Of a stretch of DNA of 64,000 nt, positions 121-49,640 are shown piece after piece. The stretch covers positions 8,584,214 through 8,648,213 of the forward strand of contig NC_057754.1 in the NCBI RefSeq assembly GCF_004010195.1. The letters run 5' to 3'. Numbering within the stretch: the stretch's first letter is position 1; every line of letters begins with the position of its first letter. The notes below the pieces were generated by a model that saw only the letters and a program-made list of their open reading frames with translations, was not told the DNA's origin and did no database searches. The position numbers were made by a program, and so were the translations under genes. This DNA comes from Chiloscyllium plagiosum. Its lineage: Eukaryota.

Positions 121-1422
121 AAAATCACACAGCACCAGGTTATAGTCCAACATGTTTATTTGGAAACATTAGCTTTCGAAGTGCTGCTCCTTCATCAGGT
201 GGTTGTGGAGTATAAGATTATGAGACACAGAATTTATAGCAACAGTTTACAGTGTGATGTGACTGAAATTATACATTGAAAAATACCTTGATTGTTTGTT
301 AAGTCTCTCATCTGGAAGAATGACCATGATAGTTTCACTTCTTTCATATGTAAATCGCAAAACTTTTTTTAAAAGTTACATTCTGAAGTGACCTTTAACA
401 ATTGGTGTCAGCCCAGACAATGTATTGGGTATTAGCACCCCTCTGTGCTGCTGTCTGTGCCATAATGTTTCGAGTGATTCTACTCTAAAAAAAATGAATT
501 AACAGAATCTTACATGGATTCATGCAGTTTTGAGCAAAGTACAATGTAACTGTGCAAGTACAAATTCACCCCACAAACTTGTATGTGTATCCATGCATGT
601 GTGTGTGTATGTTTATGTGAGTGTCTGTGTGCGTGCGTGTGCGTGCGTGTGCATGTGTGTAGGAATGCCTGTGTGTGTGTGTGTGTGTAGTGCAATTGGG
701 TCACCTGTAGTGTGACATGAATCCAAGGTCCCAGTTAAGGCCCTCCCTATGGGTACCGAACTTAGTTATCAGTCTATGCTCGGCAACTTTTCGCTGCTGC
801 CTGTCCTGATGTCTGCCTTGGAGGATGGACACCCGAAGGTCCGATGTTAAATGTCCTGGACCACTGAAGAGTTCTCCAACTGGGAGGGAACTCTCCTGTC
901 TGATGATTGTTGTGTGGTACCCATTCATCCGTTGTCGTAGCCTTGGCTCGGTTTCCCCAATGTACTATGCCTCCGGGCATCCTTGCCTGCAGCGTATGAG
1001 ATAGACAACATTGGCTGAGTCACATGAGTACCTGCCACGTACATAGTGGGAGGTGTCCTCACACGTAATGGTGGTATCCATGTCCACACTCTGATACGTC
1101 TTGCAGCGTCTATCGTCACAGGGTTGTATGGAGTTGTCCTGAGAGCCGGGCAGTTTGCTACGAACAACGATCTATTTGAGGTTTGGCGTTGTTTAAAGGC
1201 GAACAGTGGAGGTGTGGGGAAGGTCTTGGTGAGGTGCTCGTCCTCATTGATAATGTGTTGCAGGCTATGGAGAACATGACATAGTTTTTCAGCTCCTGAG
1301 AAGTAATGGAAAACGAAGGGTACCCTGTCGGTTGCAGCACGTGTCAGTCTCCTGAGGACGTCATTACGGTTCCTTGTTGTGGCACATTGGAACTGGCGGT
1401 CAATGAGTTGTGCATTGTACCC
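121..1422 (-). mobile_element. Penelope-like retroelement, 3' part (GIY-YIG endonuclease remnant and 3' tail with hammerhead-like motif)
   Basis: Frameshifted minus-strand frames give ...YIGETEPRL...RMNGYHTTI...PVGELFSGPGH...AEHRLITKFGTHREGLNWD. The tail matches 33960-34260. Confidence 0.85.
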
Positions 1423-4290: not shown

Positions 4291-4429
4291 ATTAGAGTGG
4301 TGCTGGAAAAGCACAGCAGATTAGGCAGCATCCGAGGAGCAGGAAAATCGATGTTTCGGGCAAAAGTCCTTCAACAGGAAAGCCCTTCTAATCTCGACTC
4401 TGATCTCCAGCATCTGCAGTCCTCACGTT
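4291..4429. mobile_element. Short Penelope-derived insertion with a degenerate 17-bp TSD
   Basis: gtggtgctggaaaagcacagcag...gcatctgcagtcctcac, flanked by tgaccatgtgggtattg (4274-4290) and tgaccacgtgagtattg (4430-4446). Confidence 0.7.
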
Positions 4430-8514: not shown

Positions 8515-8708
8515 TACAAAAATGTGTTGCTGGAAAAGAGCAGCAGGTCAGGCAGCATCAAAGGAGCAGGAGAATCGACGTTTCCTGAAGAAGGGCTTAT
8601 GCCCGAAACGTTGATTCTCCTGCTCCTTTGATGCTACCTGACCTGCTGCACTTTTCCTGCAACACATTTTTAAGCTCTGATCTCTAGCATCTGCAGTCCT
8701 CACTTTCT
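8515..8708. mobile_element. Palindromic Penelope-derived element with 11-bp TSD and hammerhead-like core
   Basis: 8521-8580 is the inverted copy of 8606-8670; TSD cctgcaagagt at 8504-8514 and 8709-8719. Confidence 0.8.
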
Positions 8709-8877
8709 CCTGCAAGAGTCATCACAATCACGTGTGGAGATATGTGGGAATATGCTGGGAAGTACTAATCTAATTATGCATGATTTTGATATAGGAAATG
8801 CTGTTACAATTGAGCAATACCCTTCTAGACTTAACCCTCTAAATTTGGCACAGGTTCAAAAAGAGATTGCATGCATG

Positions 8878-16860: not shown

Positions 16861-16922
16861 TAAAAAAAAGTATATAACTTTGACGGGCTCGTGTTACATT
16901 CAAGGTCTTCTGTTTTTCACAG

Positions 16923-17821: not shown

Positions 17822-18289
17822 CAAGGGCGTTACAGTTGACTTTGTAGTTCGTTTTGCATTTGTGCTGAAGTTATTGTGATGGATGGAGTGCATTCAAAGA
17901 TCTGATTTCCTTGAATGTCTCTTTGCAATGGTCAAATTGTAAAAGATATCTCGTCAGTCAATGAACCATAAAACATCTCTAACATTTATCTTGAAATAAC
18001 ACAATGCAGATTGAGCTTGTTCATTTTTTTTTATTTAAAGCTTCTCTCCCTCAGCTTAACATTTGTTGAATGCATGAATGCATTTTTTTGTCACATGTAT
18101 TTTACAGTGGAAGACTTCTATTGTTGAAATGATTGTGGAGCTATCTTGAATAGTTTAAGAATACCAGAAGGATGTATCTTAAAGAGGCTCCATAGTCCTC
18201 CTGCCACTGTCTCCTGCGACCAGCAGCGATCTGATATGCCAGGGGGAGTGTGTGCAATCATCTTTGCTACAGGCCTTGAAGAAATTGCC

Positions 18290-18830
18290 TTGAAGGGATT
18301 CCGTTTGGATGTTGCCACACACCTGGAACCCTTCGAAAATCTCCAGGGGATCCAGCTTCCTTCACTGCCAAATCCCAGCCACCCGACGCCTGGACGACGA
18401 ACACCTCAACTTCCGCCTTGGGACCCACACAGGATCAATGCCGACTTCACCAGTTTCCTCATCTCCCCTCCCCCCGACCTTGTCCCAGATCCAACCCTCC
18501 AACGTGGCACCACGTTCCTGAACTGTCCTACCTGTCCATCTTCCTTCCCACCTCTCGGCTCTACCCTCCACTCCGACCTATGACCACCATCCTCCCACCT
18601 TCATTTACCTATCACATTCCTAGCTAACTTCCCCCCAAGCCACATCCCCCCTCCCATGTATCTCTCAGCCCCTTGCCTCTCCCCACCCAACACCACTCAA
18701 CATTCCTGATGAAGAGCTTATGCTCGAAACATCAACTCTCCTGCTCCTCGGATGCTGCCTGACAGACTGTCCTTTTCCAGCACCACATTCCCGACTCTAA
18801 TCTCCAGCAGCTGCTGTCGTCACTTTCTCC
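18290..18830 (+). mobile_element. Penelope-like 3' fragment with hammerhead-like core (counterpart at 39440-39915)
   Basis: ATRRLDDEHLNFRLGT (GIY-YIG C-terminus), then CTGATGAAGAGCTTATGCTCGAAAC at 18706. Confidence 0.8.
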
Positions 18831-19951: not shown

Positions 19952-20996
19952 ATAGAACATAGAACAATACAGCGCAGAACAGGTCCTTTGGCCCTCGATG
20001 TTGTGCCGACCTGTGAACGTCCCCCTACACTATCCCATCATCATCCATGTGCTTATCCAAGGATTGTTTAAACCTCCCTAATGTGGCTGAGTTGACTACA
20101 TTAGCAGGTAGGGCATTCTACACCCTTACCACTCTTTGAGTAAAGAACCTTCCTCTGGCATCTGTCTTAAATCTATCACCCCTCAATTTGTAGTTACGCC
20201 CTCTCATACAACCTGACGTCATCATCCTAGGAAAAAAGCTTTCACTGTCTACCCTATCTAATCCTCTGATAATCTTGTATGTCTCTATCAAATCCCCTCT
20301 TAGCCTTCTTCTTTCCAATGAGAACAGACCTAAGTCTCTGCAAGACATTCCCTCCAGACCAGGCAACATCCTGGTAAATCTCCTCTGTACCTTTCCAATG
20401 CTTCCACATCCTTCCGGAAATACGACGACCAGAACTGTACACAATATTCCAAGTGCGGCCACTAGCGTTTTGTATAGTTGCAACATGATATTGCGGCTCG
20501 GGCACTCAATCCCTCTACCAATGAAACCTAACACACTGTGTGTCTTCTTAACAGCACTATCCACCTGGGTGGCAACTTTCAGGGATCTATGTACATGGAC
20601 TCCAAGATCCCTCTGCATATCTACACTGCCAAGAATTGTTCCATTGACCCCGTACTCTGCCTTCCTGTCATTCTTCCTAAAGTGCATCAATTCACATTTA
20701 GCTGCATTGAACGTCATTTGCCACCTTTCAACCCAATTCTGCACTTTATCCAAGTCCCCTTGCAACCTGTAACATTTTTCCACACTGTCGACTACTTCAC
20801 CGACTTTAGTGTCATTGGCAAATTTACTAATCCATCCACCTATGCCTGCGTCTAAGTCATTTATAAAAATGGCAACCAGCAGTGGTCCCAAAACAGATCC
20901 TTGTGGCACACCACTAGTAACCCGACTCCAGGCTGAATATTTTCCATCAAACACCACTCACTGCAATACTTCAGAAAGCCAGTTTCTAATCCAAGC
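19952..20996 (-). mobile_element. CR1-type LINE RT fragment inserted only in duplication unit 1
   Basis: ORF 20118..20957: SGVPQGSVLGP...FINDLD...KFANDTK...RGDLIETYKI; atagaac tail; absent at the paralogous site near 41095. Confidence 0.92.
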
Positions 20997-21117
20997 ATGA
21001 GAGAGAGAGAAAGAATGTGTACTGTTGGAATCTCAATGCCTTTTGATCCTTTAACCTCCCCTTTACCCTGCAGCCAGACTGAAGCAGACTCCAGGAGTCA
21101 GCTCTGTCCCTCACAGG

Positions 21118-21738
21118 TGTTAACGACCAGGCCAGAGCCCCTCAAAAGATTTCACAAAGGTAGCCCAAACCATCACTTTGCTAGTTGTTTCAAGCAGGTG
21201 TAAGGTGGATATTCCAGGAGAGAATCAGCTGGTAAAACCATTTAATTTTAAACAAGGCAACTTACTTTCAGATTACTGAATGAAACACAAACAAAATAAA
21301 AAAGAATACTGAACAAATTAACCTCTCCAAAAACCACACAGATCATACCAGCTTAATGATGCTGTTCCATATACTTGCACCAATTCCCCTTGGCATAAGT
21401 AGTAAAATCAAACAGAGTCTTACAGGAGAGATGTCAGAGAGAGTGTCTCAGCCTGGACCTGCCTCTTTGGGTCCAATAAACTTTTCCCCTCACTACTACT
21501 AAAACCCAAACCAAGCCTGAGATAAGCTGAGCTGGGAGAACTGGCCACTCCCCCTTCATTGGACAAGTGTTTTTTTTAACTTGTAAGCCTTCTGTCTGAG
21601 ACAGTATCTGTTGTCCTTTATCAAGTTGGTCCGAAAACCCTCCAACCCCAGACATTTTAGAGTCTGTGTCATTTACAACTGCTCTGACAAACACAGCCAA
21701 GTACACCATAACCTTGTTAAAGGAGCAGCTTCATCGCA
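21118..21738 (-). mobile_element. Solo LTR, family B (counterpart at 41214-41826)
   Basis: TG...CA ends; similar to the reverse complement of 7500-8160. Confidence 0.8.
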
Positions 21739-21739
21739 A

Positions 21740-23065
21740 TCCAAACTGGAATGTACTGCAAGGAGGACCATCTGTTCACTAGCAAAATGGGTACCATGCA
21801 CTTAACATCTATCACAAAACCGCAATCTGTGAAACCTTGTGCAGTCTTTTCATCTGAGCACAACCAGTGATTTCCTCCTTGGTGACTCCTTCTTAAGTCA
21901 ATTTCTTTTTTCGGTAGGATTCATGATAATCATGTGAGTCAGAGGGACTTCTCGTGATATCAAGATACTTTCATGGTACTGCCCAATATAGTGAACCTGT
22001 TTTAGTGGGTGCATGTGATTGTCTCCATGTCTGGGCATGAATAACACTGTCCCTGTATTCCATCCCACTTGAATGACCTGGTCAGTACGCAGTACTCTGC
22101 TGACAAACGTTAAACTCCTTCTGTGTCCCAGGGCCATCTTTTCTCCAATCTATTCTCTTCATTGCTTATCACCCGATTGTGCTCTTGGTTCTGATACAAT
22201 TTCAGCAGGTTAGCATTGCTCATTGACAACAGCCAGCTGGCATAGATTGTACACATCTCCGCTATATGTCATTCCTTCGATATATGAGCCAGTCGGTCAA
22301 AAAGTGAATTGGCCATATCTTGTAGAGGCTTCAAAACTTTACTTGCATCTAACGTAACTTGCTCCCACCATTTCTAATCATCCCCTCCTTTTTGCCAATC
22401 GTTTCAAAAATTGTTTGACCCAGTTCTGGCCATGTACCCGTTGGGGCCTGAGTCAGACTAGCTTTCAGTGTCTAATTCATTCATTCTACCACACCTAACT
22501 TTGGAGTGGTATGGGAGATAAAATGTCAGTCTCTTCCCTAACAGGGCATATACTTGCTTCAGCACCTTCTCTGCGAAACGTATCCCTCGATCAGGGTCGA
22601 CCTGCAGGGGGGCTCCCTTCCCCCAGCCTCGGTATAATCTCTTCTGCCTGTATTCCTCATAAGTAATCTCTGTAGGGGGATGCTCTCACCAACTCTTTAA
22701 TCTGTTCTTCCTGTTGCATGTGGCCTGCAGACGAAGAGATGTATCCTGACTGAGCTCAGACCAATGCACAGTTATGAGTATTACCAAAGGCAAAGCTTAC
22801 TCCCTGCGTTGTGTAAACTCTCCGATCCCTAGCTAGTTTCAGTGCTTTTAATTCCACCACGTGGGTTGAGTACCTCTCAGAATTCTGCATGCCTGCCACC
22901 TGAATCCCCCTTGACATCTACAGCTACGCAAGCATGCAGGACATTCCCTTTAGTATTTCCTTATTTCCTTGATCCATCTACAAATAACTCCAACACTCCA
23001 TCTCTGTCTAACGGTTCCTCAGCAATCCTGCCATGCTCTCCATCATCAACTTCTCTCACTCATTC
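21740..23065 (-). mobile_element. Decayed class I (epsilon/gamma-like) ERV: RNase H, integrase and a post-pol region
   Basis: My minus-strand translation gives EEPLDRDGVLELFVDGSRK...VELKALKLA...FAFGNTH (RNase H) and EEIIPRLGKGAPLQVDPDRGIRFAEKVLKQVYALLG...YLPYH (integrase core). Confidence 0.75.
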
Positions 23066-24324: not shown

Positions 24325-25684
24325 CAGAGTCATAGAGTCCTCCAGCATGGAGACAGGCTCTTTGGCCCAAACTGGCCCATGCCGACCAAAACATCCATCC
24401 ACATTAACTCCATTTCCCATATCCTTCTAAACCTTTCCTATCCATGTATTTGCCCAAATGCCTTTTAAATGTTGTTGATATACTTGCCTCAACCACTTCC
24501 ACTGGCAGCTCATTCCTTACACAAACCCCTCTCTGTGTAAAAAGCTTGCCCTTCAGCTTCCTATTTATTCTTTCCCCTCTAACCTTAAACTGGTGCCCTC
24601 TAGTTATTGATTCGCCAACCCTGGGAAAAAGACTGAGTACATTTACCCAGCCATGCCTCTCTTGCTTATACACTTCATTAAGGTTCCCCCCTCCCCCACC
24701 TCATTCTCCTACACTCTAAAGTTAAAAAGTCCTGGCCTACCACCTTTCCCAATAACTCAGACCATTGAGCCCTGACAACACCCTTGTAAATTTCTCCTGA
24801 ACTCTTTCCAGTTTAATAACAACCTTCCAATAGCAAGGTGACCAAAACTGAACACAATGCTCCAACTGTGGCCTCACCAATGATCTGTACAACTGCAACA
24901 TAACTTCCCAACTTCTACACTCAATGCCCTGACTGATGAAGGCCAGTGTGCCACAAGCCTTCTTCACTGCCCTGTGACTCCCCTTTCAGAGAACCGTGCA
25001 CCTGAACTGCAAAGACCTTCTGTTCCACTACACTCATTAAGGCCCTACCATTCACCATGAAACTCCTACCTCGATTTGACTTGCCAAAATGCAAGACGTC
25101 ACACTTATCTATGTTAATCTTCATTTGCCATTTCTCGGCCCACTTCTCCAGCTGATCAAGGTCCTGCTGCAATTCCTGATAACCCTCCCCGATATACTGC
25201 TTGAGGAAACTTTCCTGTACACACTTTACAAATTCCACCCTATCTAAGCCTTTAATGCTCTGGCTCAGTATATGTTAGGAAATTTAAAATCCTCCACAAC
25301 TTCTATACTCAATGCCCTGACTGATGAAGGCCTGTGTGCCACAAGCCTTCCTCACTGCCCTGTGACTCCCCTTTCAGAGAACCGTGCACCTGAACTGCAA
25401 AGACCCTCTGTTCCACTACACTCATTAAGGCCCTACCATTCACCATGAAACTCCTGCCTCGATTTGACTTGCCAAAATGCAAGACGTCTCACTTATCTAT
25501 GTTAATCTTCATTTGCCATTTCTCGGCCCACTTCCCCAGCTGATCAAGGTCCTGCTGCAACTCCTGATAACCCTCCCCTATATACTGCTTGAGGAAACTT
25601 TCCTGTACACACTTTACAAATTCCACCCTATCTAAGCCTTTAATGCTCTGGCTCAGTATATGTTAGGAAATTTAAAATCCTCAA
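24325..25684 (-). mobile_element. CR1-type LINE fragment including a 388-bp tandem duplication
   Basis: YQELQQDLDQLEKWAEKWQM and LYRSLVRPQLEHCVQFWSP; 24909-25296 is repeated at 25297-25684. Confidence 0.85.
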
Positions 25685-25905
25685 CTGTGATAACCATTTC
25701 CTCCTCCAAGTCTCCCGAGTCTCCCTGCATATCTGTTTTGTTCATAGATTCTGAATGCCAGACAAGTTGAATCTTAATACAACTTCTACATAATTAATGC
25801 CTAGGTTTTAATGATTCTGAAATGCCCAATATTCAATATATGTCATGTTTCCATAATAGTTCTCCAGTACTGAGATGCAATGTCCACAAGTGGCCGAGTG
25901 ACTGA

Positions 25906-26071
25906 GGGTGGAGAGTGTGTGGTGCTGGAAAAGCACAGCAGGTCAGGCAGCATCTGAAGAGCAGGAAAATCGACGTTTCGGGCAGAAGCCCTTCATCAGG
26001 AACCTGCTGTGCTTTTCCAGCACCACACACTCTCCACTCTGATCTCCAGCATCTGCAGTCCTCACTTTCTC
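25906..26071. mobile_element. Palindromic Penelope-derived element with intact hammerhead-like core on the minus strand (counterpart ~43843-43993)
   Basis: gtgtggtgctggaaaagcacagcagg / cctgctgtgcttttccagcaccacac inverted pair; the reverse complement of 25971-26000 is cCTGATGAaGGGCttctGCCCGAAACGTCg. Confidence 0.8.
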
Positions 26072-26494
26072 CCTGATGATTGAGGGTGACTCGTCCATCG
26101 CTGTATTGTGATGTTTAAAATCTGCGGTCAAGTTCAGAAATTTGAAGCGATTGACAAAAGCTTTCTGCATCTTCAATTACTTAAAAAACAAAATGGTTTC
26201 CATCCCCATCCATCCATCCCTCCCACTTCAATCAGAATGGATTAGCGATAGTTTACTACTAATCTGAAGGAGTCAGAGTCGGATGTAATTATTTCAGCAG
26301 CCCATTTCACCTATAAAAAGGTAAAAGCCATGCGTTATCATCCATTTCATTAAATTATATATTTCTTTCAAACTCTTTTATTTCAAATTTCTCACATTTT
26401 AAAACATATTATCAGACAACTTTGTTCAAAGAAAATTACTTTTCCAAAATTCCAATTTCCCTATTTCTTAAAGAACCATTTCACACCAATAGAT

Positions 26495-28760: not shown

Positions 28761-29673
28761 AGGTGTGCGGCCAGATATATGGGAAAGGCCAGGAACCACC
28801 CTGAATCTGGCTTTCACATGGAGCCAGGTGGCCCTCTTAATCATAGTTCACATCTGAAGATCAATGACGCTCTGAGTTGCCCAGCGAAATGCAGTACCTT
28901 TCATGTTACAATAATTACATGCAACATTGATGTCATTGTTAGCCACATCTCCCCAATAAATACATTCAATCCAGTAAACACATAATCAATGATGGATAGC
29001 TCTACAGGCAGCCCAAGGTCCTCCCATAATACCATGATGTCTAACAGGTATCTCCATCATGTCTTTGGGATCTTACAATGCTTCTGACAGGTTTATTACT
29101 TCCCAGACACCTGACAGCCTAAATAGTTGCTTTTCATTAAGAGCGCTTCCAACTTCTGTACTAACTTTAGTATGGCAGATTAGGAAGGATATTAATTTCT
29201 ACCACTTCAACCTTTCTCATTTCAACCTGAGAGATCAAGCAAAATTCCTTCAGACTTCCAGCAGCAGCTCAGGCCCTCTGCTATTTGTATGATGCAAGTG
29301 GGTTTTAAAGTGAAGCTTCATTTTAATTTTTTTTTGACAGTTTCCCCTCTAAACATTTCCATTACCTTTTCTTCATAAAAGCATCGATTGGAATTCCACT
29401 GATAAGGGTGAAATTCAATCATTTTAAATCTTTACCAAGCTATTAAGCGAAACATGTTTAGATTCCACAAGGAACGAGGCAACATAACCATATCTTCACT
29501 CTGTATTTTGTTATCTGGCTTTGTCACTCCTCCCTTGATCTATGGATATAACAGCCTGTTCGAATTATCTGCACTTGCAACTTAAGTTTTGAATATTCAT
29601 CTTTCCCAATCGTGTCCTCTCCTACGCCAATGTGTTTGTTTTTGGAGGTCCTCTTTGAACCAGTTATCACTTT

Positions 29674-30427
29674 ATCTTCCCTCATAATTAGGCCTCTTAA
29701 TTTGCCTATAAACATTCACTCATAGAATGTAACTAACTTTTTCACACTAATTTGTTGCTTGCCTTGTCTTCTATGTTTTACTGAATGAAAAACTTGAGGC
29801 TGTGGCCCTACAAAAGTCCCCTTTGTTCGAGCGTTGATATGTTCAGAATTGCCTATTTATAGAAACCTGATTAACTTCCTGAATGTTTCTTTCTGTGGAG
29901 AATCTCATCTTATCCACCATATCTATACAGAGATGGCAAACCTAGCTGTGAACATCTACTGTCCATAACTATTAAACCATTTCGACCATTTTGTGTTAGC
30001 TAAAACAGCCCAAGCGGCCATCTTGTTAACTTCATCATGGGCCATTTCATTACCCTAGCAACTGACTATGGATCAACCACCTCACTGTTCCCTTAGCAAC
30101 GCCTGGAAGCCTCAATCCCTATCACTGGTCTTCCCTAACAATGGTCTTCTGCCACACCCCCCACTCGATTCCCCGAGCAACAGCAAATTGCCTGACGTAC
30201 ACTCTGTTTCCCTTGCAATGTTCTGTTACCCTACCCACCTGTTCCCTGGCCCCACACTGTGGCTCCCTCAGCAATGGCTTGTGTACCACTCCCACTCTGT
30301 TCCCTACCAATGGCCAGTGGTCCCTCACGTTTCCCCTAGTAATGGCCAGTGGTCCAACAATGACCCAGATCCCGAGTGAAGCCATTCCCACTCTGCTCCC
30401 TTAGCAACAGGCCCTGGCCTAACCTCC
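29674..30427 (+). repeat. Inverted duplication, left arm (~750 bp)
   Basis: Reverse complement of 34889-35640; the ORF track shows identical mirrored ORFs (30068..30379+ and 34937..35248-). Confidence 0.95.
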
Positions 30428-30677
30428 CCACCCCAGTCTGACTCATCACCCTCACCTTGACCTCTTTCCACCTATCACATTTCCGACGCCCCTCCCCCAA
30501 GTCCCTCCTCCCTACCTTTTATCTTAGCCTGCTGGACAAACTTTCCTCATTCCTGAAGAAGGGCTTATGCCCGAAACGTCGATTCTCCTGTTCCCTGGAT
30601 GCTGCCTGACCTGCTGTGCTTTTCCAGCAACACATTTCCAGCTCTGATCTCCAGCATCTGCAGACCTCACTTTCTCC
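30428..30677 (+). mobile_element. Penelope-derived 3' tail with intact hammerhead-like core, at the inversion breakpoint
   Basis: CTGAAGAaGGGCttatGCCCGAAACGTC at 30553-30580; ends gcatctgcagacctcactttctc. Confidence 0.85.
30551..30582 (+). ncRNA. Candidate minimal type I hammerhead ribozyme (representative copy)
   Basis: CUGAAGA-A-GGGC(UUAU)GCCC-GAAA-CG-UC: full catalytic core, 4-bp stem II, palindromic ACGU stem III. Stem I is only ~2 bp and activity is untested. Confidence 0.6.
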
Positions 30678-32958
30678 TCTCTAGGGAACCACGTGACGAA
30701 AGCTATTGACCACTCTTTTTGCCTTGATACTCCGTAATGGAATTGCCTCTGGAAATCTGGTAGACACATCCATTATAGTTAACAAATACTGGTTCCCACA
30801 TTTACTTTTCAGGAAGGGACCTACACAATCATTGATAAACCACGTAAAATGTTCTTCCAAAATGGGAATTGGCAACCAAGGGGCTGGTTTTATTACTGCC
30901 TGTGGCTTACCTACCATTTGGCATGTTTGATAGGTACAGCAGAAGTTAACCACATCTTTGCACATTCCAAACCAACAGAAATGTTTTTGTTCCTCAGCGT
31001 GACTCTTCTGTACACCTAGGTGACCTCCTACTGCTAGTTCATTTTCTATGCATAACACCTCCTAACCTTCCAGAAATTCTTGTTGGAAGCTAAACTTTGT
31101 CTTATGCACCAACGTATATTCATCTGCCATCTCTGCAGCTCTTCCCACTTCCTGAACTTTCTTTTCATTCACATGAATTCTTATAATCTCTGGAAGTGAA
31201 TTTTTAATCTCTGTGATTCTATGACTGCTCCAACAGAATAATCTCTCTTCCAGTCTCATAGATCTTATCTATTTTTAAGGCCTGCAAAATGACTCTGTTT
31301 AATTCTTTTGAACTCAACAAAAGACTGACTGGTTCGTTCTTTATGTTTCTGAACCGCTGTCTTTATGCTTCTGGTACTGACTCATAGCACTTAAAATAGC
31401 CTGCTTGACCTCTGCATAATCTCTTGACCCCCTCGTCTGATAGCACTGCAAATACCTCACTAGCTCTGCCTACCAGTTTAGTCTGAAGTAACATTACCCA
31501 CAAGTCCTCTGACCACTCCATCTGCCTTGCCAAATTTAAAATGAAATAAAGAAGGCTTCAACATCTTTCTTTTGAAAATGTGGCAGAGTTTTGATATATT
31601 GGTATATACTGTATCAGGACCTTCTCTCTTCATCTCCATCCTGTTAACTTGCCTTTCCTGACTAATTCACAACTTCTGAAGTTCAAATTCTCTCTGCCTT
31701 CCTCTTTCATCTCTTTCTCTTTGCTCAGCTGAGTACCATCTCTCCCTTTCCTTTTCCTCTCTCTCTTTCTCCATCTTTATCTTCTAATTCAGTTTTCCTC
31801 AATTGTAATGTCAGTTTTTCTAACTCGACTGCACTTGTCTGTTTCTCTGACGCACTGAAGTCCTAGACTAACTCCCTTACAATTTCAGCTTTACTTTTGT
31901 CCTTGGTCAAATCCAATTCTATTTGCTAATTCTAAAAATATGGCCTTTCTCAGTCTTTTTCAACTTTCCTGATAAATTATTTATCACCTCCAAACCCCAG
32001 AACCTCTTTAGCATTTCTATCCATTTTAACTGAACCAACTACAAATAACCAAAATTAAACAAATTGTCTCAGCTATGTTTTATTTACAGATCTTGGACAC
32101 TAATCAAAAAGTGTTTAAATCTGCTGGGATCTTTTCTATCCCAAATCTGCTCAAATCTGTCCAAATTTCAGACTGGATCTATCTAAACCAGTCCAAATGA
32201 GAGACCCAAGCTCCCAAACTGTTACGACACAGCAGTGAGCTCTTCTGCTAATTAAACCAAGCAGCCAGAAAAGCTCACCCTGCCTCATAATCTGTTAAAG
32301 TATGAGTGACAGAGAACTTCCAAATTCTACTATTTAAAGAAAACAATTAATTTATTGTTTTACTCTCCAAGTGAAAATTAAACAAAAGGTATTTACAGCT
32401 CCAAGCCACCTTTCTCTGAACTGTTTATCATCTGCCTCCAACTCAATAACATAATACTGTTCTAATAACCGCCTGTATTAAAATTACATCAACATAATTT
32501 CAAAACCACACAGTGGCTGTCATCTCTGGTGTCCTCCTTCTTTCAGCTGAAGATCTCCCTGGGTCATCTGCTGTCTTCAGCTGCAAAGATGTTTCATATG
32601 AAAAGATATCCTTGCTGGAGAGTGTATTGCTGTCAGCTACTCTGGCGAGGGCTGTTGGTCTCTCTGGCTAACTTTCAAAATGTCTGCTTCTTTATACCCT
32701 AACATCGGATATACCCTAATATTCGATTGGGTATTATTATCCTGGGGCATAAGTTAAACTGATTGGCTAAATTCAAATGGTCGTCAAAACAGCAACCAAA
32801 GCTCAAGTATTTCTTTCATAGCTAAATGTTACAGATGGTCATTTTTGCAGCACACACTGAGACTGCTAGTCAGTCACATGTCAGGTGCCTTGAGGCTCTC
32901 TGTGTAAAGAACTTTCGCCCTGTCTTAAAGGCACAGTACATGTCTTCAACTTCATATT
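30677..32958 (-). mobile_element. Gmr1-type Gypsy 5' half (family A LTR 32220-32958, gag remnant, integrase N-half), inverted relative to its 3' half
   Basis: ORF 30681..31058: GGHLGV...FCCTYQTCQMVGKP...DCVGPF...YLLTIMDVSTRFPEAIPL; AAEMADEY gag motif; LTR boundary TGTTACG at 32220. Confidence 0.88.
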
Positions 32959-33924
32959 TCACATGTAGACACAGACAGGCACATCCAAAATCTGCGAAAT
33001 ATCTAGAGTATTAAGCTCAAGGAGGTTTATAAAGCTCAGTTGAAATATTCACAAAATATCATAATTAGTTGAACTCATCGACTTCCAAACTGCATAAGTC
33101 TCAATTTTGATCAATAGAGAATTTATTGGTGCACCTACAAAAGTTTTAAAATGTTTTCTTAATGGAGGTGCCACGTGTGTATTGCGTGCAAGCCAGCAAA
33201 TTATGAATCAACAATTTTCAATTGGAGATGTTAATCAGTGGAACCTTTCAGACATTGGGCTGTAGAATTTCCACCAAAAATCAGTAAAGTAAGAGTTCAT
33301 TGCTTTCTTGTTCAGCAAACTTTGTTTTAATCGGCATCTCATGAACTTAGATAAACTGGAAGCAGTTCTGCACCTAAACTACTGTAAGTTTACTGTATTG
33401 GCGGGATCTCTGCGATGTCCAAGCAGCGAGCTGAGGGTGCGAATGGGAAGGCACTCGGTTTTGTTTAAGAGCAAAGTTGCGTTATCATTGAAATGCCTGA
33501 CGATGGAAATGAAGTATAATATTGATTCGTATATTCCCTGCATTCTTTAGTTGTGTTTTTACATTGATTATGTGGACTGCTTGATCAACACTCTCTAGAC
33601 CCATAAAAAGTTGTTGTAATTGCGCCTGTGTCAAGACTTCTTGGAATACAAGGTAGGACATCCGATGATCCATTTGAAAAGGGACACTGCTGATCCCAAA
33701 TTAGGATAAATCAGGAGAGGTTAATCAGTGGAACCTTTCAGACATTGGACTGCAGAATTTTCACTAAAGATCAATTTAGGATTGAAGTAAAAGTTTATTA
33801 TTTTATTCTAATTGCACCTCTGTCAAGATTTCTTGAAATCAAAGGCAAAATAACAAATGATGCATTTAGAAAGGGACACATGATCAAAATTCAGTGACAT
33901 GTCCAGAATATTAAGTCACGATTT

Positions 33925-34262
33925 GGAGACAGTGGTGTTGGACTGAGGTGTACAAAGGAAAAAAATCACACAACATTGGGTTTTAGTCCAACAGGTACAT
34001 TTAGAACACTAGCTTTGGGAACGCAGCTTCTTCATCAGGTGGTTGTGGAGAATAAGATTGTAACACACCGAATTTATAGCAAGAATTTACAGTGTGATGT
34101 AACTGAAATCATTTATTGAAAAAGATCTGGGTTGTTTGTTAAGTCTCTCATCTTTTAGAATTATCATTTTTTTAAACGCTTATTTTGAATGTTACATACT
34201 CAAGTTAACATTAACAATTGATGTCATGTTGGCCCAGATAATATATTGAAGGTGTTAGGTCC
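33925..34262 (-). mobile_element. Penelope-like 3' tail, same family as 121-1422
   Basis: aaaatcacacaacattggg...ttcatcaggtggttgtggag...aagtctctcatct is collinear with 121-430. Confidence 0.8.
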
Positions 34263-34274
34263 ATTCATCTGTAA

Positions 34275-34661
34275 CTAGGCCATTGCTCGGGGAGCAGTGT
34301 GGCAGGTGTGTTTAAGACCATTTCAAGGGGAACATTGTGGCGGTTGGGTTCAAGGTCATTGCGGGGGAAGAGTGTGGTAGTTGGATTGAAGGGCGTTGCT
34401 GGGGGATTAATGGGGCAGGTGGATTCAAGGACATTGCTAGGGGATCAGTGTATCCTGTGGATGCAAGGTCATTGCTAGGGGAACTGTATGGCAGGTGGAT
34501 TTAATGGCGTTGCTCGAGGAATAATGTAGTGGTTGGGGTTCAAGGTCATTGCTCGGGGAAAGGTGTGGCCTGTGGGTTCAAGGGCGTTGTTGGGGACAAG
34601 TGTGGTGGTAGGACATAGCCAATTGTTGAGAGAACAGACCTGGAATGATGCAGCAAGCCAT
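34275..34661 (-). repeat. 38-bp-unit minisatellite (degenerate), inverted
   Basis: Reverse complement of the array at 45720-46260. Confidence 0.8.
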
Positions 34662-34673
34662 TGTTTAGGGAGT

Positions 34674-34871
34674 TGAAAATGTGTTGCTGGAAAAGCGCAG
34701 CAGGTCAGGCAGCATCCAGGGAACAGGAGAATCGACGTTTCGGGCATAAGCCCTTCTTCAGAAATGAGGAAAGTTTGTCCAGCAGGCTAAGATAAAAGGT
34801 AGGGAGGAGGGACTTGGGGGAGGGGCGTGAGGCGCTCTTCCTCCAACCGTCGTGTTGTTGTGGTCTGGCGA
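34674..34871 (-). mobile_element. Penelope-derived insertion with perfect 12-bp TSD and intact hammerhead-like core
   Basis: tgtttagggagt at 34662-34673 and 34872-34883; core at 34732-34763 on the minus strand. Confidence 0.85.
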
Positions 34872-34888
34872 TGTTTAGGGAGTAGCTT

Positions 34889-35640
34889 GGAGGTTAGGCC
34901 AGGGCCTGTTGCTAAGGGAGCAGAGTGGGAATGGCTTCACTCGGGATCTGGGTCATTGTTGGACCACTGGCCATTACTAGGGGAAACGTGAGGGACCACT
35001 GGCCATTGGTAGGGAACAGAGTGGGAGTGGTACACAAGCCATTGCTGAGGGAGCCACAGTGTGGGGCCAGGGAACAGGTGGGTAGGGTAACAGAACATTG
35101 CAAGGGAAACAGAGTGTACGTCAGGCAATTTGCTGTTGCTCGGGGAATCGAGTGGGGGGTGTGGCAGAAGACCATTGTTAGGGAAGACCAGTGATAGGGA
35201 TTGAGGCTTCCAGGCGTTGCTAAGGGAACAGTGAGGTGGTTGATCCATAGTCTGTTGCTAGGGTAATGAAATGGCCCATGATGAAGTTAACAAGATGGCC
35301 GCTTGGGCTGATTTAGCTAACACAAAATGGTCGAAATGGTTTAATAGTTATGGACAGTAGATGTTCACAGCTAGGTTTGCCATCTCTGTATAGATATGGT
35401 GGATAAGATGAGATTCTCCACAGAAAGAAACATTCAGGAAGTTAATCAGGTTTCTATAAATAGAAAATTCTGAACATATCAACGCTCGAACAAAGGGGAC
35501 TTTTGTAAGGCCACAGCCTCAAGTTTTTTATTGAGTAAAACATAGAAGAAAAGGCAAGCAACAAATTAGTGAAAAAGTTACTTACATTCTATGAGTGAAT
35601 GTTTATAGGCAAAATAAGAGGCCTAATTATTAGGGAAGAT
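34889..35640 (-). repeat. Inverted duplication, right arm
   Basis: Near-perfect reverse complement of 29674-30427 (a few substitutions and one 2-bp indel). Confidence 0.95.
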
Positions 35641-35730
35641 GAAGAAGGGCTTATGCCCGAAACGTCGATTCTCCTGTTCCCTGGATGCTGCCTGACCTGC
35701 TGCGCTTTTCCAGCAACACATTTCCAGCTC
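35640..35730 (+). mobile_element. Penelope-derived tail fragment at the second inversion breakpoint
   Basis: Nearly identical to 30554-30644; truncated at the first C of the CUGA core. Confidence 0.85.
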
Positions 35731-36500
35731 GGTTCCCTAGAGAGATTCAGTCTGACCAAGGTTATAATTTTACTGCTAGGCTGTTTAAGGAAGTCATGCA
35801 TAGCTTAGGCAAACACCATTTTAAATCAAATACATATCATCCTGAATCCCAGGTAGCTTTGAAAGATAGCATCAGAACCTGAAGACCATGTTGAGAGCAT
35901 ACTGTCAGGATTACCTGAATGATTGGGATAAAGGTATCCCATTTATATTGTTTGCCATTAGAGATGCCCGACATGAATCTACTCAGTTTACTCCCTTTGA
36001 GTTAATATTCGAACATGAAATGAGAGACCTTTGAAATTAATTAAAAAAGGAACTGACAGGACTGAAGTCAGAGACCTCACTCTTCGATTATTTATCAGAG
36101 GTGAGGGAGAGATTAAATCAGGTAGGTGAGTTCGCTAAACATCACCTAAAAAGGGAACAGCATAGAATGAAGCAGGTGGCAGATAAAACTCTGAAATTCA
36201 GGTATTTTCCCATTGGGATGATATATTAGTATTGTTACCAGTGGTAGGAGATTCCTTCAAACCCAGGTTTAGTGGTTCCTATCAAATCGAGAAAAAGTTG
36301 TATCAAGTGAACTACATGGTAAAGATGCCGGACAGGAAAAATCTGTATCGGGTATGTCATGAAAATATGTTGAAATCTTGTTATCATAGAGAGAAGGAAC
36401 TGGAGAAACAGTTGTTTTTTAATGCCCCACAGAGTGAGGAATCAAATCCAGATGCCGTGGAGTTTGATGTGCCTCAAAATACGTTAAACAATGAGGATGC
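35731..36500 (+). mobile_element. Gmr1-type Gypsy integrase C-half (continuation of 30677-31058)
   Basis: FPREIQSDQGYNFTARLFKEVM...YHPESQ...DWDKGIPFILFAIR...PRFSGSYQI...CHENMLK. Confidence 0.88.
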
Positions 36501-36796
36501 CATTGAGGGACGTGGGGTGTGTGGATGGCAAACAACAGAGATGGTGGGACAGGCTGGGGCGGTGTGGAGTGAGGGTGGTGGAAGCTGTGTTGTTACTCAC
36601 AAATCCCTGCAACCAAAACTGTTCATGGGCATTTGTTTATTCAGTGGATTGTAACTAATATTACTGATCTTACCCTAAAGAAGTCCTTGGAGATTTCGCT
36701 TTCATATAAGTAAGCGACACTGAGTGTGTTTTGTACGAACACACACAGAAGGAAAAAAATACTTGTCAGTGCAGTTATTGAAGTTTCTCACAAGAA

Positions 36797-36866
36797 ATGG
36801 GATACCCTACAATTTTTCAGGTTGATCTAATTTACTATCCAGTTCTGGCTGCTATCAGTATTCCAG
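36797..36866 (+). CDS. GPR139/GPR142-like class A GPCR, copy 2, coding exon 1
   Basis: MGYPTIFQVDLIYYPVLAAISIP followed by CAG|GTGAG donor; 2 nt differences from copy 1 exon 1. Confidence 0.88.
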
Positions 36867-38069
36867 GTGAGATCATGGAACAGTGCTGTCCAAGTCGAAA
36901 AGTGATGTGTGCTAACAAATGTAATCCATTCTCCCTTTGCTGGTATGGCTTAAATGTAAAGAGATTGTCCTGTTTTCCGAAATGGTTCACGAATTGGAAC
37001 GATTCTTCAATTTGCACCTCAGCTAACGTTCAATCAGTTAATGCTTTCAGAGTTATTGATAAAAACTCCCACCCAGAATGGCACTGAGATCAGATCAGAA
37101 ATGAAATAACAACTCCTTCAACTTGCCAGCATTAACATTGCTGTCATGCCTTTGTCAAGGTGATTTCTACAATTGTTTCTTTGCAAAATGATTTCATGTG
37201 TTACATTGCAGAGTCCTGCCTTGTTTACTTGTCGTTACATCTGCTGTTTTTATGCATGTTATCCTATAACCTGGATGCTTAACTGGGTTAATGTGAATGG
37301 AGAATTGGTGATTTTCTTCTGTTGATGTGTGATCTTGTCGTCATATTTTCTATTTTGCACTTTTCCCTGTCGGACTAACTAGTGTTTGATCCACTCATTA
37401 AATTGTACACCCAGAGTTTTGCCCAGGCTTCTTTGATGTTTAGATAAAGGTATAAAGTTTTTACCCAAAGTATTCATTTAAAAATTCAGCAATAAGTGGT
37501 TCTGTTCTGGAAATGTGTGTTTAATTATACTGAACGGGAAATTTAATTTTGGATAGCTGTCCGTCCTTTGCTGTTGCTGATCACTTTAGATTGACACTTT
37601 CTGGAGAGTTAACGGGGTGACTTGGAATTTACTTGATACTGCAAACCGGATTGACAGTTTCAGGCTCTCAATTTCAAGCGTGTTGAATGTTATTCTGTAT
37701 AAACTATCACTGAATGTGGAGTGTGCATACAGTCTAAAAAGGTAATAATGCTTAGTTAGTGTTAGACACCCAACAGGTGAGTGTGAAAAGGTACGTGGAC
37801 TCTATTTGTTTTATACAGGCATGTTGCCATAATATTTAACTATAATAACTTTTCATCTGCCTTGATCTCAAAAAAATTGAATTTACATTTCTGACATAAA
37901 TTAGTTTGCAATTGGTCATAGAAGGAGTTATTTCAATTATTCATTGTATTTAATTCATCAATCAAAATATGAGCATTTAGTGCAATTTTCTATATAAAGA
38001 TGTTGTTTAAAAGAAAGTATGTAATTTTGACTATCTCATGTTACATTCAGGGTCTTCTGTTTTTCACAG

Positions 38070-38968
38070 TTAACCTGATAGCAATTGTGATCCTTGTTCG
38101 AGGAAAGTGTGGTCTATCCAAGTGCATCACATGCTACCTGGTAGCCATGGCAGTGGCAGATCTAACAGTGGTTATCGTCGATGTGATATTCCATCGGATT
38201 AATTACATGTATTGGCTAATTAGATTCCTTTCCTTGACTCCAGTATGTACTGTCAATCTTGTTGCATACATAGTAGCTGTAGATTGTTCGGTCTGGTTTA
38301 CTGTTGCCTTCACATTTGATCGCTATGTAATGATTTGCTGTCAGAAGATACAATCAAAATATTGCACACAGAAAACAGCTGGCGTGGTTATCGCCATTAT
38401 ATGTGTGATGAGCTGTTTCAGGAGTATCCCATTCTACTATTTTATCGAGCCGGCTTTTATCATTGACAGCGTGCCATGGCATTGTTTTCCACGCATGGAT
38501 GATTTCATTTCTACTTTTCGGAAGGTATATGAGTGGATTGATACCATCATTACCCCTTTATTGCCAATTGTGTTAATCCTGTTGTTCAATGCTTTGACCA
38601 TCAGACACATTATTGTGGCTAACAGATCCCGCACAGGCCTTCTGAGTAACAGCAGCAACCAGAACTGTCCTGAAGGGAAGAATCGGAGAACATCCATGGT
38701 TTTGCTTTTCAGTATTTCTGCCAATTTCGTATTACTGTGGATGACGTATGTTGTACATTCGGTAAACTGGCCAGTGATAAACTACTATTACACAGACAAA
38801 TACCTCAGTAATCCGATGTACATCACCCAACAAGTTGGATTTATGCTGCAGCTTCTGGGTTCCTGCACAAACACGTGTATCTATGGAATTGCGCAGAAAA
38901 AGTTCAGAGAGGAGCTGAAGCATTTGGCAAAATGTTTGTTTACTCTGAATGGGAAATTGTGTCAATAA
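38070..38968 (+). CDS. GPR139/GPR142-like class A GPCR, copy 2, coding exon 2 (322 aa spliced protein)
   Basis: Acceptor ttttcacAG at 38068-38069. Intact 7TM frame with the same motifs as copy 1; about 95% aa identity (15 differences including exon 1). Confidence 0.92.
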
Positions 38969-39439
38969 CAAGGGCGTTACAGTTGACTTTGTAGTTCGTT
39001 TTGCATTTGTGCTGAAGTTATTGTGGTGGATGGAGTGCATTCAAAGAGCTGATTTCCTTGAATGTCTCTTTGTAATGGTCAAATTGTGAAGATATCTCGT
39101 CAGTCAATGAACCATAAAATATATCAAACAGCATGCAGTTATCTTGAAATAATACAATGCAGATTGAGCTTGTTCGTTTTTTTTTTATTTAAAGCTTCTG
39201 GCACTCAGCATACCTCTTGTTGAATGAATGAATGCATTTTTGTCATGTGTATTTTACAGTGAAAAATACAGTGGAAGACTTCCATTTTTGAAATGGTTGT
39301 GGAGCTATCTTGAATATTTTAAGAATACCATAAAGATATATCTTAAAGAGACTCCATAGTCTTCCTGCCACTAGCAGAGATCTGATATGCCAGGGGGAGT
39401 CTGTGCAATCATTTTTCCTCAGACCTTGAAGAACTTGCT

Positions 39440-39915
39440 CCGGAAATCGAAGATCCCGTTTGGAAGTTGCCACACACATAGAACCCTCCTTGGGATCCGG
39501 CTTCCTTCACGGCCCAGTCCTGGCCACCCGACGCCTGGAGGACGAACACCTCAACTTCCGCCTTGGGACCCTCCACCCATACGGGATCAATGCCGATTTC
39601 ACCAGTTTCCTCTTCTTCCTTATCCCAGATCCAACCTCCTTCCTGAACTGTCCTACCTGTCCATCTTCTCTGCTGCACCCTCTGCCCTGACCTATCACCA
39701 TTACCTATCCCTTTCATCTATCTGTCGCATTCCCAGCCCCACCTCCCCTCCCATTTATCTCTCAGTCGCTTGACCCTCCCCCCAACCCCTCCACATTCCT
39801 GATGAAGAGCTTATGCTCGAAACGTTGATTCTCCTGCTCCTCGGATGCTGGCTGTGCTTTTCCAGTGCCACACCCCCGACTCTAATCTCCATCATCTGCA
39901 GTCCTCACTTTCTCC
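39440..39915 (+). mobile_element. Penelope-like 3' fragment with hammerhead-like core (unit 2 copy)
   Basis: ATRRLEDEHLNFRLGTLHPYGINADF; CTGATGAaGAGCttatGCTCGAAACGTT at 39799. Confidence 0.82.
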
Positions 39916-41213
39916 AATCACTCGAGATGACCAGGAAGCGGATGCAGGCGGGAATGGGGAGAAACTGTGGGGTTTGTGCAGTGACATGGCGAGGCCAGCA
40001 GAGAGTGGTGTTGTACTTAAATTAAACTCCGGAGGATCGGGGAGGGAGAGAGGGAGAGGACTCAATTCATCATGGTTTTGATTCGTTCATTCAACGTGTA
40101 CCACATTGCAGGCAGAATGGGTCACACAGAAGCACACGTACAATACAGAAAACCAGCGACACACCAGACCCAGACACACGCACACAGCACACAGAAATAA
40201 ACACAGATATGCATTCATTTCAAAGAGAGAGAGAGAAGTGCATACAGAAGCACACATAGACAGACATAAGAACACACATATACAGACAGAGAGACAACAG
40301 AAAGACACATAGACACAGGAACATACTCATACAAACACGTGAACGGACACACAACACGCAGAGCCGTACAGACATTTACAGACACATTCAGAAAGAAACA
40401 CACACTCTGACATAATGCTCCTCAGTATATAGTCAGGGACGTAGTTGATATGTTTTAACAATCTCATGTTCATTTGTATAAAAACCTCACACTTATTTGT
40501 GCAACAGATCCGTGTAATCATTTGATGTCCATTTGTAAACGGCATTTTGTTTATTTGTAAAATTCTCAGACGAGTAAAAGGCAACTTGCTGACTTGACTT
40601 TGTTCATCTCAGGTCAACTCCCACCTTTTGTTGATGTGTTTGAAAATCCTGTCTTCTTGTGCGATACATGTGTGTTCTGTGGTTGCTGAGTCTGTGTCCC
40701 ATCCTCTAAATGAACATGTGTAGTGGCAGTGTTGTCTCTGTATGGATTTGAGGTCTGGACCAGTGTATGAGGTGCAGAGTTGGGGGGAGGAGAGGGACAG
40801 CCTGAGGCAGTCTGGACTAAACTATTGAGCAGTTGCTTTTCATCACACTTCCTTTCTCATTCACTCCCTGCCTCTAATCTCAAAAAGCTGTCTCTTAGTG
40901 GGCTCCATACTTGGGGGAGGTGTGCTCCAGGTAGAAAGAGCTGGGAGCTGATTGGATGAGCTGGGATTTGAGCAGAGCGCGGTGTTTGAATGACAGACCT
41001 GAGGGTATTTTAAACAGGTCTTAGACGCTATAGTTCCTTTTGTCATATGGACAGAGGAGGAGGTGTCAGAATGATTCTGTCTGTCTGTGTGTATGTGAGA
41101 GAGAAAAATTGTGTACTGTTGGAATCTCAATGCCAGTTTTGATTCTTTAACCTCCCCCTTACCCTGCAGCCCAACCGAAGCAGACCCCAGGAGTCAGGCC
41201 TGTCACTCACAGG

Positions 41214-41826
41214 TGTTAAGGTCCAGGCCAGAACTCCTCAAAACATTTCACTGAGGTAGCCCAGATCCTCACTTTATTAGTTGCTTCATGTAGGTGTAAG
41301 GTGGATATTTCAAGAGAGAATCAGCTGGTAATGCCACTTAGTTTTAACCAAGGCATTTTTAAAGTAAGATTACTGAATGAAACACAAAGAAAAGAAAACA
41401 GAATACCGAACAAATTAACCTCTCCCAAAACCCCACAGATCATCCCAGCTTAATGATGCTGTTCCAAATACTCGCAACAATTCCCATAAACACCCCTGGG
41501 CACAAAAGGTAAAATCAACACAGTGTCGTACAGAAGAGATGCCAGAGAGAGAGTCCCAGCCTCTTTGGGTCCAGCAGCTTTATTCCCCTCACTACTACTA
41601 AAACCCAAACCAAGCCCAGAGAAATGCTGAGCTGGGAGAATTGGACAAGTGTTCTTTTTTTAAAAAGCTTGTAAGCTTTCTGCCTGAGGCAGTATCTGTT
41701 AACTATTACAAAACTGGCCCTAAAACCCTTCAACCCTCGACTTTTTGGAGTCTGTGTCATTTATGACCGCTCTGACAAAAACAGCCAAGGGCACCATAAC
41801 CTTGTTAAAGGAGCAGCTTCATCACA
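41214..41826 (-). mobile_element. Solo LTR, family B (unit 2 copy)
   Basis: Collinear with 21118-21738. Confidence 0.8.
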
Positions 41827-41829
41827 TTC

Positions 41830-43010: not shown

Positions 43011-43014
43011 AGGT

Positions 43015-43560: not shown

Positions 43561-43999
43561 TTCCACCCTATCTAAGCCTTTAATGCACGGGCCCATTCTA
43601 TGTTTAGAAAATTAAAATCCCTGACTGTGGTAACCCTATTGCTCCTGCTAGTCTTCTGAGTCTCCCTGCATATCTGTTTTGCTCACAGATTTCGAATGCA
43701 AGAAGGGGTGAAACTTAATCTAATTTCTCCATAATTAATGTCCAAGCTTTAGTGATTTTGAAATGCCAAATATTCAATATATGTGTTGTTTTTATAGTGG
43801 TTCTCCAACACTGAGTTGCAATGTACATAAGTGGCATGATGATTGTGTGATGCTGGAAAGGCACAGCAGGTCAGGCAGCATCCGAAGAACAGGAGAATCG
43901 ATGTTTCAGGCATAAGCCATTCATCAGGAACCTGCTGTGTTTTTCCAGCACCACACCCTCTCGACTCTGATCTCCAGCACCTGCAGTCCTCCTTTATTA

Positions 44000-49439: not shown

Positions 49440-49640
49440 TAATTGACAGGAACAGGAAATGACATCGCCACAGGAAACAACATCACCACAGGATATGGTG
49501 TCACCGATCCAAGAATCACATAAATAAAAAGTGGGCTATACCACCAGTGCTTCATCCAGAGGTACACTGATGATGTTACCTAGTATGGTGATGAAATGTC
49601 TGAAACTGAATCTTCCAGCTAAGTGAGCAATACAATTTCC
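49440..49640 (+). mobile_element. Penelope-like 3' tail (third family) with hammerhead-like core
   Basis: caCTGATGAtGTTACCtagtatGGTGATGAAATGTCtg at 49565-49602. Confidence 0.6.

Follow-up and report, generated by a model that had tools for sequence, protein, structure and literature searches.

Does the repeat segment at positions 30551-30582 (+) of this 64,000-nucleotide (64 kb) stretch of shark DNA (hereafter the window) specify a self-cleaving RNA and, if so, would such a ribozyme act where it now lies or only in the RNA of the element that left it there? In RNA letters the segment reads UC-CUGAAGA-A-GGGC-UUAU-GCCC-GAAA-CG-UC-GA, and it adds one more ordinary case to a known kind, the minimal hammerhead described in 2014 for Penelope-like elements (PLEs). 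The focal locus itself is very probably a 250-base truncated end-piece of a PLE terminal repeat that carries a minimal type I hammerhead sequence and is likely inert (Table 1).

A minimal hammerhead in the focal repeat

The catalytic core (C3-U4-G5-A6-N7-G8-A9, G12-A13-A14-A15.1 and U16.1-H17) shows zero deviation in five copies of the focal repeat family, F1, namely those at 30553, 8585, 25999, 34761 and 39799. The base inserted between A9 and position 10.1 is an A in 9/9 F1 copies, the G10.1-C11.1 pair is kept in 8/9, and the palindromic 15.2-16.2 spacer, which stands without a helix III loop, is CG in six of the nine and, through CpG decay, CA in the other three. Helix II is a loop-closed stem of 4 bp in which 94% of the cells of the nine-copy F1 alignment are paired, and the focal helix I allows 2 bp plus a U-U mismatch, with a predicted pairing probability of no more than 0.08. 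The original prediction had placed complete copies of the pattern CUGAnGA-A-(4-bp stem)-GAAA-CG-UH at 8585(+), 25999(-), 30553(+), 34761(-) and 39799(+) (C3 positions), all of which are seen, and had set the cut 3' of GUC at 30580, which is indeed C17.

With a motif this short, a repeat could in principle resemble the hammerhead pattern by chance. In a descriptor search of the kind that the original prediction had proposed, run over both strands of the window for the core, a stem II of at least 4 bp, GAAA, a self-complementary spacer and UH, 7 strict matches were found (8585, 25999, 30553, 34761 and 39799, all of family F1, together with 198(-) and 49567(+)) against an expected mean of 0.14 and a maximum of 1 in 100 order-3 Markov simulations; when a helix I of at least 2 bp was added, 6 matches remained against 0 in 30 simulations. 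The Markov null contains no repeat amplification, and thus rejects a chance pattern while saying nothing on the independence of single copies. Rfam returned no hammerhead among 10 matches at E values up to 5, these matches being only microRNA-type hairpins below the gathering score that are due to the inverted arms of the repeat. No such match was to be expected, because the motif has neither helix III nor loop contacts, and the result is not supportive either; canonical type I hammerheads, as represented by the Rfam models, have a 6-bp helix I with loop-loop contacts, and the focal motif, with its 2-bp helix I, falls outside that class. The shortness of the motif, the silence of Rfam and the occurrence of a single double-sided stem change (see below) are what chance has in its favour, but the simulations largely refute it already, features beyond the core pattern (the extra base, the G10.1-C11.1 pair and the palindrome) are all found, and the motif sits at the 3' end of a GIY-YIG element, the exact place where PLE hammerheads are described. 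We consider a chance origin extremely improbable, and the focal motif is almost certainly a PLE minimal hammerhead.

Table 1 Coordinates of the hammerhead motifs, their host repeats and the rearranged interval (window positions)
Feature	Position	Strand	Details
Focal minimal type I hammerhead motif, family F1	30551..30582	+	2-bp helix I
Focal CUGAAGA core	30553-30559	+	C3 = 30553
Focal extra A after A9	30560	+	
Focal stem II	30561-30572	+	Strands 30561-64/30569-72
Focal GAAA	30573-30576	+	G12 = 30573; followed by CG, UC
Focal predicted cut site	3' of C17 = 30580	+	
Arm A, 5'-truncated PLE 3' end with focal motif	30428..30678	+	Optional 33-34 nt tail at 30645-30678
Arm B, tail-less PLE insertion with intact F1 motif (C3 34761)	34670..34873	-	Target duplication of ~10 bp
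Arm C, tail-less, truncated at U4 of the core	35640..35730	+	Without C3 and the helix I 5' strand
Inverted head-to-head PLE end pair, intact motif at 8585	8518..8711	+	Target duplication of ~10 bp
Inverted pair, intact motif (C3 25999), loop UUCU	25905..26072	-	
Duplicate of the 25999 insertion, motif 43927	43845..43995	-	10.1-11.1 pair broken, CG to CA
PLE 3' fragment, GIY-YIG C-terminal remnant (about 39445-39609) and motif (C3 39799)	39430..39915	+	
Duplicate of the 39799 insertion, frameshifted GIY-YIG remnant and motif 18706	18263..18830	+	CG to CA, helix I broken
Inverted pair, degenerate motif (C3 4377)	4297..4429	-	A6 to U, stem II mismatch, CG to CA
Flank X, unique-type	29670..30427	+	Inverted duplicate at 34887-35644, 744/760 columns identical
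Putative inverted interval between arms A and C	30678..35743	.	
F2 hammerhead (C3 198)	165..201	-	Stem II GGAG/CUUC, GC palindrome, UA site; unrelated to F1
F2 PLE family stretch	107-1572	-	Holds the remnant, a CA microsatellite and, in its terminal repeat, the hammerhead 198
Decayed second F2 copy, motif 34039(-)	33961-34258	-	GAAA to CAAA
F3 hammerhead (C3 49567)	49565..49602	+	6-bp stem II, extra U, UG then UC

Kinship of the copies and the weight of covariation

To judge from their flanks and mutual likeness, the nine F1 motifs derive from five to six insertions, so that the copies are not independent. Those at 18706 and 39799 are a single insertion inside a ~7.7 kb duplication (15232-22940 versus 36591-43013) in which both flanks are common, those at 25999 and 43927 a single insertion within another duplication, and the arms bearing 30553, 34761 and 35640 differ from one another at 1-3 of 91 bases. 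The ~7.7 kb block, a tandem duplication at ~83-87% identity, also holds two single-ORF rhodopsin-family receptor genes (7tm_1) at 16808-17821 and 37973-38968 (+), the first matching 7tm_1 at E 6e-19.

Against this background several details of the original prediction required revision. It had listed 18706(+) as a full copy of the pattern, but this motif reads GAAA-CA-UC, with CA in the place of CG, and its first helix I pair is gone. The copy at 35640(+) does lack its first C, as stated, although the cause is 5' truncation (the arm starts at U4) and not mutation of that base. The degenerate copies reported at ~4350-4378(-) and ~43899-43928(-) are both present, with C3 at 4377(-) and 43927(-), and the loop varies as described, but the UUUU form is confined to the copy at 4377, in which both the core (at A6) and stem II are disrupted.

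A further claim was compensatory change in stem II. The replacement of GGGC/GCCC by GAGC/GCUC is a true double-sided change, from G-C to A-U, and is found at 18706 and at 39799, where the motif is otherwise intact and lies 190 nt downstream of the GIY-YIG remnant; because these two copies are one insertion multiplied by segmental duplication, the change counts as one event. In the nine-copy alignment it affects 1 of 6 pairs and 2 of 54 cells; one such pair was reached in 247/500 shuffles and two such cells in 28/500, and the overall covariation score was matched by 25/500 in a control that ignores the relatedness of the copies. The change is real but, as a single inherited event that nearly half of the shuffles equal, is weak evidence of covariation. 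As to conservation of the core, across 7 non-independent copies 1/77 cells differ at 11 invariant core positions versus 14/168 at 24 downstream bases (p 0.04), and significance is lost once CpG sites are left out (1/70 versus 9/147, p 0.17).

A better structural argument than covariation within F1 is the comparison between families. The window contains two further hammerheads, F2 and F3, which the original prediction did not mention, and in F1, F2 and F3 unrelated stems, each of them pairing, surround the same core. The F2 motif lies 506 nt downstream of a PLE remnant (RT thumb, linker and GIY-YIG) at 704-1428(-), whose best matches are Chiloscyllium punctatum proteins (84%), which makes a bamboo-shark-like source of the window probable; the order and strand of hammerhead and remnant suggest that they belong to the same element. 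For F3, no PLE protein could be linked at 49565..49602.

Three other repeats of the window deserve mention. A weak GIY-YIG-like remnant is present at 50893-51066 (-) (E 0.13). At 47496-47690 there is an inverted pair of another repeat end that resembles the downstream part of F1 (74% over 68 bases), has no intact core and probably represents a fourth PLE family. Finally, a perfect-looking 388-bp tandem duplication (97%) at 24909-25682, inside a LINE-like remnant, is either a recent duplication or an assembly artefact.

The host, a likely shark Penelope-like element

Decayed reading frames ending RRL..EHLNFRLGT...N.DFTSF lie upstream of 39799 and 18706, and a short coding piece of the GIY-YIG end is found at the 5' end of arm B. 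A whale-shark protein shares 79% identity with the remnant upstream of 39799 and leads to two proteins, P0029 of the whale shark and P0031 of the zebra shark, that combine reverse transcriptase (RT) motifs, a CX4CxxC linker and a GIY-YIG domain and match 39445-39657 at E 3e-9 and 9e-10, respectively. In P0029 the Pfam GIY-YIG domain scores above the cut-off (23.2 versus 22.6 bits) and the RVT_1 match lies below its own; P0031, for which no PDB match was found, is a read-through model that ends in LMKGLRPKR, the hammerhead's own frame (LKKGLCPKR at 30553). Starting at about 30424, the focal arm can be aligned at 70% with the fragments that hold 18706 and 39799.

The F1 arms have two end points 33-34 nt apart, occur in inverted pairs, are truncated at the 5' side and are flanked by short target duplications; 5' truncation, inverted end arms, an optional tail of 30-40 nt and short target duplications have been described for PLEs (PMC8557442, PMC3846280). 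Family-wide, a 3' boundary likewise falls at 30678. These sequence comparisons indicate that the F1 repeat forms the 3' terminus of a PLE with RT and GIY-YIG that is found in sharks, the link to RT coming from proteins of other sharks and the F1 copies of the window apparently carrying only a C-terminal remnant; the window holds no full-length F1 element, its copies being terminal pieces. A linker of the CX2-5CxxC type before the endonuclease is a Neptune/Nematis feature (PMC8557442), and the host clade is probably Neptune. The idea that a PLE carries the motif, in the form of a minimal hammerhead of dimer-type architecture, is thus borne out by the core, the spacer and the RT + GIY-YIG relatives.

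Searches with less complete queries gave little. The 60-aa F1 remnant had no match by word search (0/11 candidates), in Atlas or in Pfam, the F1 remnants escaped a profile built from F2-type proteins, and neither metagenome contigs nor viral contigs contained the downstream family pattern (0 matches in each). P0025 and P0027, considered as F1 relatives among 3 representative matches, turned out to be unrelated tandem-repeat proteins.

Predicted folding and cleavage

Stem II of the focal copy forms with a pairing probability of 0.96-1.0, and the hammerhead fold costs between 1.0 and 6.2 kcal/mol depending on context; in the copy at 8585 the cost rises to +17.8 kcal/mol, and folding predicts that a long hairpin traps the motif. 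For the active dimer the secondary-structure energy is -13.3 versus -24.1 kcal/mol for the best co-fold, in a model that cannot score the non-standard pairs of the core. Since stem II forms, helix I rarely does and the hammerhead fold is costly, we regard the motif as weak.

Published experiments point in the same general direction. A single minimal hammerhead did not cut and dimers cut weakly (PMC4209133), dimer cleavage also being the subject of Lunse et al. (via PMC6765202). The PAc motif of Anolis cut only with the element's protein, mutations of its core had no effect on insertion in vitro, and the main substrate was uncut RNA (PMC11167929). By analogy, we lean towards the F1 motif cutting at some rate, either as a dimer or with protein. 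To judge from published PLEs, the transcript of an active tandem element would be cut after C17 (30580), and only when two motifs pair through ACGU to form helix III or when the element's protein aids folding; selection on the core would then act only in active master elements, and inserted copies would subsequently decay neutrally. On this view the RNA of the active element would carry the motif as a conditional ribozyme, and the focal copy would be a passive relic. This copy is likely inert because its helix I is limited to 2 bp and it has no tandem partner close by, the nearest F1 copies on the same strand lying 5.1 kb (truncated) and 9.2 kb away, and we think it most probable that cleavage plays no role at this locus. 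Moreover, the cut site is read through in all arms that continue beyond it on the 5' side, and 0/11 independent arms begin there, which means that the template RNA of the genomic copies was either uncut or rejoined.

Family-wide reads and the fate of inserted copies

The region 30400-30720 was compared at 80% likeness with contigs of two sequencing runs, X1 and X9, which represent two species, and with an RNA run, X21. The F1 family gathered 97,945 contigs from X1 and 111,858 from X9 (contig counts, not copy numbers), in agreement with the proposal that it is very abundant, as well as 4257/12,955,460 records in X21; a fourth run, X22, contributed no reads and carries no weight either way. Of the 4257 X21 reads, just 96 are at least 99% alike and 95% continue into sequence that differs. 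They fall on both strands (1068 versus 1335 reads at 30576-86), and X21 depth is zero in the bins flanking the focal locus; taken together, they give no sign of transcription of the focal locus.

Inserted copies decay without visible protection of catalysis, since G12 is lost as fast as the neighbouring CpG base 30578. It is mutated in 20% of the X21 RNA reads (423/2104) versus 446/2223 for this non-core base, and the change of G12 to A reaches 20%, 8% and 15% (X21 reads, X1 and X9 contig depth) versus 20%, 10% and 14% for G30578. RNA ends do not pile up at 30580/81 in X21, a poly(A) single-cell library that is insensitive to such ends, and depth shows no step across the cut site (ratios of 1.21, 1.00 and 0.86). 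N7 and the loop bases are among the most variable positions in the 40 of 130 variant rows listed, and the compensatory stem II pair (30562 and 30571) does not figure in those rows.

Might the scattered copies, including the focal one, nevertheless shape the transcriptome by cleaving host transcripts, whether in cis or in trans? The family is represented on both strands of the RNA run, 5 intact F1 cores occur within 64 kb, and the palindromic ACGU lets any two copies pair in principle. This proposal has to contend with the failure of single motifs to cut and the poor cutting of dimers (PMC4209133), the distance to the nearest same-strand copies, the predicted locking of 8585 in a duplex, the zero reads on the focal flanks, the decay of G12 at the CpG rate and, as a weak test, the lack of piled-up ends, and we judge it very unlikely. 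The original prediction had described potentially self-cleaving motifs as very dense in this genome. Motif density in the window is indeed high, with 7 strict matches inflated by local duplications, but the copies are scattered, truncated relics and their self-cleaving potential is weakly supported.

The opposite possibility is that the F1 hammerhead is dead or near-dead even in active elements and is kept through overlap with promoter, start-codon or protein-binding signals. Such a vestige would fit the 2-bp focal helix I with its U-U mismatch, the even depth across the cut site and the lack of ends there (in an insensitive library), and in Anolis the PAc ORF starts inside the hammerhead, whose core can be mutated without effect on in vitro insertion (PMC11167929). 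However, three unrelated families keep the exact catalytic bases while their stems change, N7 and the loop bases are among the most variable positions in those 40 of 130 rows, and the PAc motif does cut when protein is supplied (PMC11167929). We therefore hold a vestige to be rather unlikely and prefer a conditional ribozyme that would act in the RNA of active elements.

The 5' edge of the hammerhead

From 30532-42 to 30565-75 the depth of the family increases by a factor of 5.5 to 12, and it shows no step at the cut site. X21, X1 and X9 all list 30549 as a 5' boundary, the flanks being mixed and AT-rich in both contig sets. Four of the 8 independent short arms start within 30550-30554, some 30 nt upstream of the predicted cut site, and 0 at 30581 (p about 0.01-0.015, post hoc); for all 11 arms over the same span, p is 0.04-0.06. 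One way to read this edge is that the RNA of the element starts ~4 bases before the core, near 30549. The ribozyme would then be a cap-proximal switch that removes a ~32-nt leader, the solo and inverted copies of 85-130 bp would be run-off cDNAs from the 5' end of uncleaved RNA, and cutting would withdraw RNA from the transposition pool instead of making it ready. A 5'-proximal hammerhead would not be unprecedented, given that the start site of D. virilis Penelope lies 46 bp upstream of an intron whose end is at helix I (PMC4209133). Nonetheless, the subfamilies diverge upstream of this point, which also yields a depth step at 80% likeness, and a 3-base microhomology could make it a hot spot for template switching; together these explain the clustering of starts equally well. 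Capped 5' ends did not appear, and we find a start near 30549 unlikely. Two other candidates for the edge were discarded: a splice acceptor at 30549, because no AG precedes it, and the initiator-like TCATT at 30547-30551 (compare the Inr-like TCACT in PMC3846280), which is ACATT in the 18706/39799 subfamily.

A probable rearrangement at the focal copy

The arrangement of the surrounding repeats indicates that the focal arm marks one breakpoint of a ~5 kb inversion (29670-35743 region). Two parts of one Gypsy integrase remnant lie apart, at 30681-31061 (-) and from 35731 onward (+), the same target duplication of 13-14 bp is found in inverted orientation at both junctions, and an uninterrupted Gypsy copy at about 5908-6526, with both parts in one orientation, displays the original order. 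In the paralogous block at 45069-46270, flank X runs straight into the sequence that is now inverted at 34277-34672. Both paralogous blocks contain a 38-bp minisatellite (34277-34605 and 45807-46258), and the inversion accounts for the opposite orientations of its two copies.

Two origins can be envisaged. A single aberrant integration may have linked both cDNA arms with a second break; alternatively, a copy of X may have been captured and inserted before it recombined with its source. Capture of host DNA between pLTRs has been reported (PMC3846280), as have reciprocal inversions driven by L1 (bioRxiv 10.1101/2024.08.27.596794), and the excerpts of PMC12910113 hold nothing on inversions made by Penelope. 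The inversion, as reconstructed here, would show that PLE insertions can rearrange adjacent DNA.

Comparison with known systems

As a class the F1 motif offers little that is new, since PLE minimal hammerheads were described across animals in 2014. With these (PMC4209133) it has in common the CUGANGAH core plus extra base, the G10.1-C11.1 pair and GAAA-C-G-U-H without a helix III loop, as well as a short helix I, the presence of many families per genome and a predominance of solitary truncated copies with some opposite-strand pairs. The alignment rows that resemble the focal motif include those of Culex, which also has a 2-bp helix I, and Ixodes (PMC4209133); helix II (4 bp) and helix I (2 bp) of F1 are at the short end of the published range, in which helix I rows have 2-5 bp (PMC4209133). 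The searched portions of the PMC4209133 supplement contain no chondrichthyan row and no mention of shark, Callorhinchus, Leucoraja or Chiloscyllium, and our literature search, which most subscription papers lay beyond, met no paper devoted to a shark PLE hammerhead.

The closest functional parallel is the Poseidon element PAc of Anolis (PMC11167929), whose hammerhead likewise lies about 100-130 nt upstream of two alternative 3' ends a 30-40 nt tail apart, whose copies also come from uncut RNA and for which RNA-seq ends at the cut site are likewise absent. The shark PLE proteins differ from it in their CX4CxxC linker before the endonuclease. Non-LTR retrozymes (bioRxiv 10.64898/2026.07.22.740005) also bear type I hammerheads related to PLE pLTRs and have been reported in one chondrichthyan genome, but they form tandem arrays with a motif in each unit, whereas F1 copies are dispersed truncated ends and 0/26 tandem-repeat rows in the window overlap any F1 motif.

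The role of hammerheads for PLEs is still open (PMC8557442, PMC11167929). The abundance of F1, seen as contig counts rather than copies, is apparently far above the 4,000-9,000 motifs of coelacanth and Xenopus (PMC4209133), and so abundant a family makes a good natural test set for whether cutting prepares or disables the transposing RNA.
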